Below, in pieces: positions 6,001 through 9,000 of a DNA stretch of 26,967 bases (positions are counted from its first letter, which is position 1; each line of letters opens with the position of its first letter). The position numbers are program-made. Origin of the DNA: a virus (lineage: Duplodnaviria > Heunggongvirae > Uroviricota > Caudoviricetes). Location: positions 1-26,967 of the IMG/VR virus record IMGVR_UViG_2541047926_000013; one strand, 5' to 3'.

Positions 6001-9000
6001 TCGACAGATTCCATCAGGGAGCGTTTGCCGCTGAAGTCATTATCTTCAAAATCAGCGGTCTGGTTTGCTTCAATCGTGATTTTACGGACAGCCGCAGCCG
6101 CTTTTGTTGCCTGAATAGCGTCACCATTAGCATCAAAGCCTACAAGGTAGTCGGCCCAGTCTTCAATCCATTCTGCCAGTGACTTCTGGGAGTTACGCTC
6201 GCCGTTAACAGACAACAGAGCAGAGAACGGTGCTGTCTTTTTCAGTTTGAGAGTGGCGGTGTTATCTGCGTGACCTGGTTCATCAATAGTACCCAGGTTA
6301 AGCACACTGACGGCACGCATATTATCAGCATCGATAAAGCAGCGGGTGCCTTCATCTGCAAGATCTTTAGAATAACGGGTAAAATCATCGATGCTGGCAG
6401 TGGAAAGCGCGCCACGGAAACGGAAGCGATTTAAATTAAATTTTTCCAGATCATGAATGCGGAAATTCTCAGGCAATGCCACAGCATCGGCACCAATCTT
6501 ACTGATAATTTCATTAACACCCTGAGCAGAAATAAGAGCATGGATTTGATTAATTGCGGTTGCGTCTAAGTTCTGAGACATAATAAGTCCTCACTATATA
6601 AAGATATTCAGTGATGAGATAAATAATCAGTTAATTAAGAACGATATTAATGACCTGCTGCGCGGAGTTTTCCGTCAGGTTCACCGGCAAGAGTCAGTAA
6701 TTGTCCCTGGTCTTCCTGCAGAATAGTCAGGCGACCACCGCGATTGACATACATCGGCGTTTCGGTGGTGTCTTCTTCAGAAATTTTCCCGCGGTTAGTC
6801 GGGCGAACATATGAGAGTTTGTGTTTGATTTTCACACGGTTCTCATCAAACGGTTCGATTTCCAGGTTGAGCGAGACCTTACCTTTGGTTTTCGTGTTCA
6901 TCACACCGGAAGCGACTTCACTGAGAACAGCGCCGATTTTGGTTTCAAATACGCCGCCGTCCAGCTCCCCGATAAATGCCTGCACATCAGTACTGCGTTC
7001 GCTAGCCATTTTGCTGCTCCTCATCATATCGACCCTGCAAGGTCGGTTAGTTTCTCCACAAAACAGAGAAGAACACCTGCGGTGGTAGCCGCCCGGATGG
7101 ATTGGGTTATGAGCCCGTCGTCCGGTGATGCTCTTCTCTGTTTTGTAAAAAGAGCGGTACCAGCCGGAAGCAAGTGTACAAACTGGTACCGCGAGGACTA
7201 CACACAGCATAAAGTTGTGGTGCCGGGTGCCTCCCGGTGCCTGGCGAAGGTTGCACACCAGGCGGGTGGGTATCCACAGAAGGTCGACTGTCAGCCTCAA
7301 CCTTAACCCGCGTGCGCTGAGCCGCATTCACCACAACGCTAAGGATTCTCTCTGGTTGAAAATACTTAGCTGTTATGTGCCTGTCTTTTCACCACTTCAG
7401 GCTCGGTGGTATCTTGGTGTTTTCATATAGCCAAGAAGGAAATAGTTATGACCAAAGAAGAAAAAATTCTTTATTTATTCCAACTATCGGTTAAGACTCA
7501 CACTGCATATCAGACTGCTGCCATGACATCAGATAAAAATTACAGTACGTCAGAAAACCCGATAGACGACATAAGCAAGCTTTACGATAAGTTCGAAGCA
7601 CTACTCGATAAAAAGTTTGCTGAGGCTGGGCTTGAGTGATTGTTGAATAATCGACAAAACCCAACTTAAATTTTCGTCAGTGGGCTCGATGCCATGTGCG
7701 GTGAGCTCACTTTTCAAAACTCCAAGCAATTCAGAGCTGATTTTCAATATATCTGCTTGATTTCTAACTATTCCCACTTTTTCCTCCCTTGGTCTACGCG
7801 CGGTCATGTTTTACGCCCAAACGACTTCACAGTTATTGTTTAAAATCTGGACTTTCATTTTGTTCTTTAACCTCCAGATACGGGCGTTTAATGGCCCCGC
7901 CGAACAGCTCTTTTCCGCAATAGCTGCAATGTCTTTCGCGCATCAGCCTGCGCATTCAGCACAACTCTAAAAACAAATGTAGGATATCCAACATGTGAGT
8001 GTCAAGAGTTTATATTGGTTATCCTACATAAAAAGATAGGCTCATAAAAAAACCGGGGATACCCCGGTTTTGCGATAGTGAGGAAGATGTGTCAAAAATC
8101 CATTATTACTTGTTTGACAAGACCAACTATTCTGCAGTTCTCACCGCATTCAATAGTTTTATAGTTAGGATTTAGTGGGACGAGATACCTGTTCGGCCAG
8201 TCCTCAACAAATTTTTTGAGTGTCGCTTCTTGCCCACCATTGATATGGGCAACAACGATTTTTCCGTTAATACACTCTGTATCAATAATATCTGGCTCTA
8301 CGATAACGATAGAACCTTCTGGTATCGATGGTGAGCCGAGGGGATTGGTCATTGAATCACCACGGACCCGTAGTGCAAATGCCATTTCTGATACAAGGGC
8401 GGTAGTATAAACCCACTCTTCAGCATCTTCTTTCCTGACACCAGGCTCCGTCATTGTCCATGAACCCGCCTGAACCCACGAGATGAGGGGGACTTTTTTA
8501 ACTGCGAATATTTCAGGTTTTAGATTTATCTTTGGTTCAGGCGAGCCTTTTCCGCTAACAAGCCACAGAGGATCGCATTTAAGTGCGTTGGCTAGGGCTT
8601 GAAGGTTGGCTCCATTTGGTTGGTAGTCGTCCTTTTCCCATCCAGTAACCGTGACACGGTTCACACCAGTCAAATCAGCCAGTGCTTGTTGTGTCAGGTT
8701 CAGTTCTTTTCGCCTTTGGCGAATACGATCACTCATGTTCATCATGTAGGCAATCCTACCACATGCCCATGTAGGATTCTTGACATTGGTATGTTGGATA
8801 TCCTACATTTATGCTTAACGTAATTTAACGGGAGACAGAAATGCGGAAATCCGACGTGATTAATTATTTCGGCGGAGTTTGTAAAACCGCCGAAGCCCTA
8901 GGTATTAAGCATCCTTCTGTTTCAGAGTGGCCTGAGATTATTCCTGAAGGCCGAGCGTACCAGTTAGAAAAAATTACTAACGGGAAACTGAAAGTTGACG

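Follow-up and report, generated by a model that had tools for sequence, protein, structure and literature searches.

Two convergent genes with overlapping 3′-ends

The DNA analysed here, hereafter the window, is a stretch of 26,967 nucleotides (nt) from a tailed virus (IMG/VR record IMGVR_UViG_2541047926_000013) and belongs to the SfII/SfV/e14 type of lambdoid prophages. Near its repressor gene lie two small open reading frames (ORFs) on opposite strands, which we call the plus gene and the minus gene; they run towards each other and share their last 39 nt (Table 1). A preliminary description of this locus had given their coordinates, lengths, Shine–Dalgarno (SD) sequences and 39-nt 3′ overlap, and all of these match the sequence exactly. 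It had also noted an AT-rich insert, and this holds as well: GC-content is 0.40 at 7401-7800 and 0.46-0.54 in the flanks, and BLAST outlines a mosaic block, spanning about 7410-7860, which SfII and 63 of 5426 complete Escherichia coli genomes also carry, whereas SfV and many others have different sequence in its place.

The longest form of the minus ORF begins at ATG 7807 and comprises 68 aa, without a convincing SD. Homologues start, with ATG or GTG, at the position of GTG 7777, each with its own SD, and hence the minus gene is taken in its 58-aa form. Within the overlap, codon position 1 of the plus gene corresponds to codon position 3 of the minus gene. Both SfII (SfII_36) and RefSeq (WP_000159356.1) annotate the plus ORF, as 'hypothetical'. 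The minus ORF is called by gene callers or by the Prokaryotic Genome Annotation Pipeline (PGAP) in records of Kluyvera, Klebsiella, E. coli and Salmonella and is missing from the SfII record and the E. coli RefSeq record examined, where a 58-aa gene should be called.

Selection on both reading frames

Nei–Gojobori counts were made with eight divergent homologues, in the non-overlapping parts of the two genes only. At 7448-7600, the ratio of nonsynonymous to synonymous differences (pN/pS) was 0.21 in the plus frame, with no stop codons, compared with 0.47-2.4 and 18-25 stops in the other five frames. At 7640-7756, pN/pS was 0.37 in the minus frame, again with no stops, and 0.48-1.9 with 8-27 stops in the other five. 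Divergence at codon positions 1/2/3 was 0.14/0.06/0.44 for the plus frame (7448-7600) and 0.24/0.15/0.49 for the minus frame (7688-7756). Because third-position divergence, low pN/pS and absence of stops follow each gene in its own frame, both ORFs are, judging by their substitution patterns, protein-coding genes under purifying selection. Conservation of both frames in relatives had been proposed as a check in the preliminary description, and it is now seen in the part belonging to each frame; the pattern named there as counter-evidence, synonymous-site conservation for one frame only, did not appear, since each frame shows its own signature.

In the overlap itself, nucleotide divergence is 0.05, compared with 0.21-0.29 in the single-coding parts; second codon positions of both frames are invariant, and the C-terminal residues that both proteins place there are conserved. 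Constraint continues past the end of the plus gene: in the next 48 nt (7640-7687), the minus gene is about 3-fold less divergent at synonymous sites than it is further upstream. A conserved RNA structure or terminator was considered for the overlap and dropped: alifold does give a structure, yet the z-scores of single sequences reach no more than −1.3 and −1.2, which is not significant. Folding gave no significant structure for 7640-7687 either.

Co-inheritance of the pair

Relatives were compared in the DNA of 52 IMG/VR loci, one Kluyvera genome and six further contigs. For each ORF, protein searches reached homologues with as little as about 64% identity, and a profile of the minus ORF extended this to about 45%. 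Every locus found through either protein contains both ORFs in the same convergent layout (about 70 loci from IMG/VR, Kluyvera, Klebsiella, Salmonella and metagenomes, at 100% to about 45% amino acid identity), and the two genes share 39 nt, except in the distant branch, where they share 27 nt. Identities of the plus and minus proteins to those of the window fall in step (92/81, 81/79, 78/67, 73/71, 66/55 and 64/47%). Moreover, a remote cassette (locus L173) contains a homologue of the plus protein (hhalign 93%, E 3e-7), and the C-terminal domain of its minus-side protein is a weak match to the minus protein of the window. In relatives, the minus gene lies on the strand of the repressor gene and begins about 180-800 nt (mostly 180-200) beyond it; it is the second gene of the early leftward (pL) operon in the window and the first in several relatives. 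No homology to the minus gene was found for orf33 of SfV, which takes the same position.

These comparisons suggest that the two genes form one unit held together by their last 39 bp. Copies of the plus gene are broken by two frameshifts in L052/L053 and by one in L058/L062, and the minus gene is never broken. Such asymmetric decay fits a dispensable effector of the lysogenic phase with an indispensable early partner, although numbers are small and sequencing errors possible.

Table 1. The two genes, the features around them in the window, and the corresponding genes of lambda and P22 (coordinates of the phage records)
Feature	Position	Strand	Remarks
Plus gene	7448..7639	+	ATG 7448 to TGA 7637-7639, 63 codons; product 63 aa, phrog_2605, acidic (pI 5.0), predicted two-helix hairpin
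SD of plus gene	7436-7440	+	AAGGA, 7 nt ahead of ATG
Minus gene	7601..7777	-	GTG 7777 to TAG 7603-7601; product 58 aa, phrog_15476, acidic (pI 5.2), predicted two-helix hairpin
SD of minus gene	7783-7788	-	GGGAGG (reverse complement), 5-nt spacer to GTG
Dual-coding overlap	7601..7639	both	39 nt, triplet boundaries common to both frames
Extra-constraint stretch	7640..7687		Minus-only coding, directly 3′ of plus stop codon
Conserved 33-34-nt element	7376..7409	.	TGTGCCTGTCTTTTCACCACTTCAGGCTCGGTGG; left border of variable slot
Candidate extended −10	7407..7415	+	TGgTATCTT; TAT insertion after GGTGG
Hairpin/inverted repeat	7412..7436	.	TCTTGGT / 11-nt loop / GCCAAGA; 7 pairs including one G-U; between element and SD
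pL promoter	7976..8005	-	TTGACA-18-TACATT; in 40-nt inverted copy of pR region
pR promoter	8780-8809	+	Same hexamers as pL
cI-type repressor gene	8092..8745	-	LexA/S24 type; controls pL and pR
Zinc-ribbon ORF, 40 aa	7833..7955	-	RefSeq 'ClpX C4-type zinc finger protein'; first ORF after pL
orf33 remnant	7808-7858	-	SfV-orf33-type; first 14 codons MKVQILNNNCEVVW, then stop
STnc100-family small RNA gene	7145..7367	-	Rfam RF02076, 49.1 bits (gathering score 47)
Lambda sieB	34482-35036	+	Abuts N
Lambda N	35037-35438	-	
P22 sieB	29758-30336	+	20-nt gap to gene 24
P22 gene 24	30357-30659	-	

The two proteins

The plus protein matches phrog_2605 (E 1.4e-33, residues 1-63 of a 69-position profile) and the minus protein, in its 68-aa form, matches phrog_15476 (E 7.4e-50, 1-68 of 68); both families are labelled 'unknown function'. 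Grand average of hydropathy is −0.56 and 0.21, and the maximum Kyte–Doolittle value in a 19-residue window is 0.46 and 0.80, for the plus and minus proteins, respectively. By these indices neither protein is hydrophobic or membrane-like. AlphaFold2 models are simple two-helix hairpins with a predicted local distance difference test score of about 70, and hence fold matches are uninformative. Nothing usable was found for either protein in Pfam, NCBIfam, PADLOC, PDB sequence profiles or by Foldseek against PDB, or for the plus protein by Foldseek against viral models. Literature searches with the protein accession, peptide strings and the names of the e14 genes ymfH, ymfI and ymfJ found no functional study.

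The family phrog_2982 joins the N-terminal domain of e14 YmfJ to a C-terminal domain weakly resembling the minus protein of the window. Together with co-divergence and the remote cassette carrying both homologues, this modularity makes it plausible, although unproven, that the two proteins may be a matched pair.

Position in the pL operon

The 40 nt at 7968-8007 are an inverted copy of the pR region at 8778-8817, and 18-bp operator palindromes at 7977-7994 and 8012-8029 match the one at 8791-8808. Because it has the hexamers of pR, lies in this inverted copy and is accompanied by the same operators, the leftward promoter is pL. About 190 nt separate this cI-operator-controlled promoter from the start of the downstream minus gene, which, by its position in the sequence, belongs to the cI-repressed pL operon. 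Since the plus gene faces the pL operon beyond the minus gene, the pL transcript is predicted to cross it in antisense.

The plus gene in the sieB slot

Directly upstream of the plus ORF lies a conserved element with the consensus TGTGCCTGTCTTTT(A/C)ACCACnTCAGGCTCGGTGG, which has a single match in the window. In an alignment of the window, e14, O157, lambda and P22, the 34-nt block has 32 invariant columns, and the element also stands just upstream of sieB in lambda and P22, bar one or two variable positions. The region upstream of the plus ORF is more conserved than either coding region. Among 5426 complete E. coli genomes the element occurs in 852, including K-12 (prophage e14) and O157:H7 prophages. 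No Rfam family covers it, and the sole Rfam match is the neighbouring STnc100. We rejected the element as a cI or Cro operator, because it is invariant across different immunity types; a CII-type site is another candidate reading of it.

The plus gene lies on the strand opposite the pL operon and converges on pL-proximal genes near the repressor. From this convergence and the shared upstream element, we place the plus gene in the sieB slot of lambda and P22, where the counterparts abut or are separated by a short gap (Table 1). The gene itself is not of the SieB family: BLASTP gave no alignment of the plus protein with lambda SieB, and their PHROG and Pfam assignments differ. Likewise, the minus protein gave no alignment with lambda N.

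Scanning IMG/VR with the element returned >240 loci. After the C variant, a plus-strand ORF begins 20-39 nt (nearly all 27-39) behind GGTGGTAT in 166 of 173 occurrences, and this cargo comprises about 27 unrelated types. After the A variant, about half of the cargo is SieB-like and the remainder is diverse. Overall, the slot contains at least 35 unrelated ORFs, and in about two-thirds of the non-SieB types a convergent minus-strand ORF overlaps the 3′-end of the cargo by 4-83 nt. Four other cassette types were divergent enough for testing, and coding signatures were present on both strands in all four (overlaps 11-63 nt). Searches of Pfam and PHROG with 20 cargo and 10 partner proteins of the slot led to 'unknown function' in every case. 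The sieB slot is thus hypervariable and is marked by a conserved beacon sequence, a description of which was not found in the literature searched.

Two further cargo groups were observed in the slot. The cargo ORFs of L098, L108 and L163 (105-108 aa) contain strongly hydrophobic stretches resembling membrane segments, as does SieB, and have no credible convergent partner. In O157:H7 (L064 2572-2817, plus strand) and SfV (L003), the slot contains an 81-aa ORF of phrog_3311 that is unannotated in the examined record and shares 83 nt with the 3′-end of the orf33-type gene annotated there (L064 2735-3031, minus strand); its copies are too alike for a selection test.

Leader hairpin and candidate promoter

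The arms of the hairpin between element and SD vary among cassette alleles yet stay complementary. There are 17 variants, such as CTTGG/CCAAG, GCTGG/CCAGC, CCTTTT/AAAAGG, CCTTCA/TGAAGG, CCTTGC/GCAAGG and TCTGG/CCAGA, with TCTCG/CGAGA in lambda and P22. Compared with dinucleotide shuffles, their mean z is about −2 whichever strand is folded (p about 1e-5), and minus-strand folds are slightly more stable than plus-strand ones. In the P22 record, the sieB promoter and RNA start lie downstream of the equivalent hairpin, which is thus outside the sieB mRNA and must act on DNA or on leftward RNA. A hairpin that sequesters the SD in the plus mRNA is weakened as a candidate by this P22 arrangement, and also by the candidate −10 of the window, which would place the start of the plus transcript inside the hairpin.

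Leaders of the cargo genes are of two kinds. In the long leader, found with sieB and nine other cargo types, the ATG follows GGTGG by 57-94 nt and a good −10 stands after the hairpin; in the short leader, to which the window belongs, this distance is 32-40 nt and the SD directly follows the hairpin. The trinucleotide TAT after GGTGG is present in 9 of 9 short leaders and 0 of 10 long ones. The corresponding distance in the window is 38 nt, or 35 nt when counted from GGTGGTAT. The inserted TAT creates TGgTATnCT, an extended −10 motif, and we infer from this comparison that the plus gene has its own promoter at 7407-7415.

Neighbouring features

The gene of the STnc100 family is the left neighbour of the conserved element and points away from the plus gene, with yfdP and yfdQ following further left. 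It has a hairpin and a T-run at its 3′-end, and in RefSeq a frameshifted 'hypothetical protein' is annotated over it. In e14, ymfH spans a near-identical STnc100 sequence (L063 about 2150-2495) and may be a spurious ORF. Copies of STnc100 are expressed in uninduced enterohaemorrhagic E. coli, as seen by Northern blot and RNA-seq (PMC5331693), which indicates that the intergenic region left of the plus gene is transcriptionally active in lysogens. Between the 3′-end of STnc100 and yfdP lies an 88-nt inverted repeat (7059-7146) with perfect 15-nt arms, ACAAAACAGAGAAGA and TCTTCTCTGTTTTGT; it is also present in e14 (L063 about 2187-2273) and O157 (L064), with spurious ORFs over it.

On the other side, the orf33 remnant immediately precedes the minus gene, shares sequence with the end of the 40-aa zinc-ribbon ORF and marks the right-hand recombination joint of the cassette. 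A hairpin at 8046-8071 (CCGGGG-ATA-CCCCGG), with an A-run and a T-run at its sides, is found in the interval from the cI stop codon to oL. It could end leftward cI transcripts, and likewise stop rightward ones arriving from the plus gene before they run into cI as antisense RNA. In e14 (L063 3190-3260), O157 (L064 3060-3125) and several type-A relatives (right flanks of L045, L047 and L004), the stretch from pL to the first early-left gene contains another conserved non-coding block, CGAATCATCC...GGCGGCTACTTCGTGGGCGTCCTGCCTGTT. This block, which is absent from the window, is a candidate pL leader or antitermination site. In L048, a 295-aa ORF (3558-4445, plus strand) between the repressor gene and the homologue of the minus gene represents a counter-oriented insertion beside pL.

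Proposed working of the pair

In our reading, to which we assign a probability of about 0.55, the pair is a real two-gene cassette of the sieB slot, in which an early minus gene under pL and a counter-oriented plus gene would serve opposite programmes, with antisense shut-off of the latter. According to this model, cI shuts pL in the lysogen, and only the plus gene would be expressible, from its own promoter. Upon derepression or infection, pL would fire and the minus protein would be made. The leftward polymerase and its RNA would then traverse the whole plus gene in antisense, including its ribosome-binding site, and polymerase collision together with antisense RNA would turn the plus gene off in the manner of an excludon. 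At the protein level, the two acidic helical hairpins probably form a matched pair, in which the early minus protein would replace or neutralise the lysogen-phase plus protein. More speculatively, the hairpin and the element may form the 3′-end of an antisense RNA resembling sas of P22. The preliminary description had suggested mutual antisense regulation as in exclusion modules. This idea fits the context, given the pL operon, the sieB position and the precedents of sas and e14; the regulation itself would follow by analogy with these precedents.

Several points weigh against this model. The cassette is known here from its sequence alone. A consensus promoter scan called no promoter upstream of the plus gene, the TGgTATCTT call is a comparative correlation among cargo types that are not phylogenetically independent, and the hairpin beside this candidate promoter is not assignable to one strand. 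There is no significant RNA structure in the overlap region (z −1.3 and −1.2). Four loci have a frameshifted plus gene beside an intact minus one, so that the minus gene can evidently do without a functional plus partner, and some cargo genes in the sieB slot have no credible convergent partner. Moreover, the overlap itself would hold the genes together, and co-inheritance is thus no proof of functional coupling. Finally, the YmfT-iModulon list of e14 (PMC12132413), which favours the model by containing ymfJ and ymfH and not ymfI, may be a subset of the full set.

Alternative explanations

Two independent small genes, namely an early-left gene and a counter-oriented moron whose overlap reflects compactness and has no regulatory or functional meaning, are an alternative that we regard as somewhat unlikely. 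It is in accordance with lambda, where sieB and N abut without overlap, with the cargo types that lack a partner, and with the loci in which the plus gene is frameshifted beside an intact minus gene. In addition, substitutions in the e14-type overlap track the plus frame only and the tail of YmfJ looks weakly constrained, and N-terminal domains of partners (YmfJ-N and the ClpX-like zinc ribbon) recombine with different cargo. However, none of the roughly 70 loci, with identities as low as about 45%, has one gene of the pair without the other; the overlapped C-terminal residues are conserved in both proteins, and firing of pL unavoidably transcribes through the plus gene, so some interference is expected.

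It is improbable that the minus protein is an early-left regulator of the lysis–lysogeny decision, N-like by position or CIII-like, with the plus gene as an unrelated moron. CIII is a small helical inhibitor of FtsH, which the 58 aa and predicted helices of the minus protein recall; the minus gene is the first or second after pL, where lambda has N, and the phage has a CII-like Phage_CP76/YmfL gene. Against this stand an acidic pI of 5.2 in a protein that is not arginine-rich and has no similarity to lambda N, and the lack of conservation, in relatives, of the N-terminal extension of the 68-aa form, which contains RR. Furthermore, an essential regulator would not be expected in a slot with so many unrelated partners.

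A TA (toxin–antitoxin) module, type I-like or with a protein toxin and a protein antidote encoded on opposite strands, was the other suggestion of the preliminary description, and it found no support and is very unlikely. Convergent 3′ overlaps are known from the type I loci Fst/RNAII, TxpA/RatA and BsrG/SR4, and strict co-inheritance, prophage location and an asymmetric decay in which the plus gene alone is ever broken would suit such a module; but neither hydropathy maximum (0.46 and 0.80) is membrane-like, the antisense partner is a selected protein-coding gene, and a putative antidote would be repressed in the lysogen. A type II module is disfavoured by the convergent, not co-directional, genes and by the lack of toxin, antitoxin or defence matches in Pfam, NCBIfam and PADLOC.

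That only one ORF is real and the other a chance open frame, as the preliminary description had allowed and as the SfII and E. coli RefSeq records with their plus-only annotation might suggest, is refuted at the sequence level by purifying selection on both frames (third-position bias, low pN/pS and zero stops in eight relatives, compared with 8-27 stops in alternative frames), constant co-inheritance and the minus ORF calls in four genera.

Implications of a variable slot

The 33-nt beacon is common to lambda, P22 and prophages of the e14/SfV/SfII type, and SieB is the sole member of the slot with a known role. If the cargo genes are lysogen-phase genes under pL antisense control, the slot would be a searchable source of exclusion, defence and host-modulation genes together with their antagonists, and the orphan K-12 genes ymfI and ymfJ would gain a testable role.

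In a broader view, which we consider unlikely at present, effectors and their matching self-immunity proteins would be what the hypervariable sieB slot contains, pair by pair. The shared leader, composed of element and hairpin, would then drive dozens of unrelated lysogen-phase effectors with SieB as the known example, and these effectors could include exclusion, abortive-infection or host-modulating proteins. The convergent pL gene would encode the matching antidote, which would allow the phage to complete its own lytic cycle. With the specificity domain of the antidote encoded opposite the 3′-end of the effector, recombination could not split the pair. The 63-aa and 58-aa proteins of the window would be the smallest such pair.

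Comparison with known systems

Type I TA loci resemble the cassette in having two convergent units with a 3′ overlap on a mobile element. They differ in that both partners here encode conserved, predicted soluble proteins, with neither a hydrophobic toxin nor a non-coding antitoxin.

Prophage hotspots, such as those of P2/P4 and the bstA locus beside the BTP1 repressor, likewise combine a conserved flank with many unrelated, mostly uncharacterised cargo genes (PMC9122126), in prophage regions whose expression does not depend on lytic genes. The sieB slot differs by phage family and locus, by cargo that is mostly <165 aa and without PADLOC or Pfam match, and by the frequent coupling of this cargo to a convergent overlapping early gene.

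The closest functional precedent is sieB. The plus gene is in the same slot, behind the same 33-nt element, and converges on a pL-proximal early gene. However, SieB has 183-192 aa and a hydrophobic sequence, and the 63-aa plus protein is a predicted soluble helical hairpin without similarity to it; the partner in lambda is N, and here it is a cassette-specific small protein overlapping by 39 bp. The sieB leader is 57-94 nt, and the short leader of the window puts the SD at the mapped promoter position of P22. Control of sieB in P22 involves the antisense RNA sas, which reportedly derives from leftward early transcription, a result ascribed to Ranade and Poteete in 1993. P22 sieB is expressed from the prophage, and sas switches translation from SieB to its inhibitor Esc (PMC12197685, PMC7067206). 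An Esc-like internal start in the plus gene would have to use its only internal Met (codon 26, ATG 7523-7525), which is invariant in homologues but lacks a purine-rich SD within the preceding 15 nt.

In sequence organisation, the ymfI/ymfJ pair of e14 is likewise close. It occupies the same slot with the same element and hairpin, has a convergent 3′ overlap (63 bp) and coding signatures on both strands, and lies beside the cI-like cohE/ymfK. Its proteins have 113 and 102 aa and are unrelated in sequence to those of the window, except for the link between YmfJ-N and phrog_2982. Late in the SOS response, ymfJ rises up to log2 4.8, alongside further e14 genes under repressor control and with its protein detected, and ymfI only to 2.0 (PMC11002266). 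In this and in its iModulon listing, ymfJ behaves as a repressor-controlled, late-SOS gene.

Both ymfI–ymfJ and sieB–ydaF of Rac have been listed as convergent excludons from K-12 RNA-seq, a concept in which transcriptional interference and RNase III cleavage of the duplex are expected (PMC12288877). Excludons are oppositely oriented neighbours with overlapping transcripts; complete plus and minus mRNAs of the window must overlap, because the coding regions do so by 39 bp. Here, the overlap goes beyond untranslated regions into coding regions, and one partner is under a promoter controlled by the phage repressor. By analogy with these systems, the pair would be an uncharacterised cassette of a known arrangement, in which a counter-oriented prophage gene within the pL operon is transcribed in antisense.

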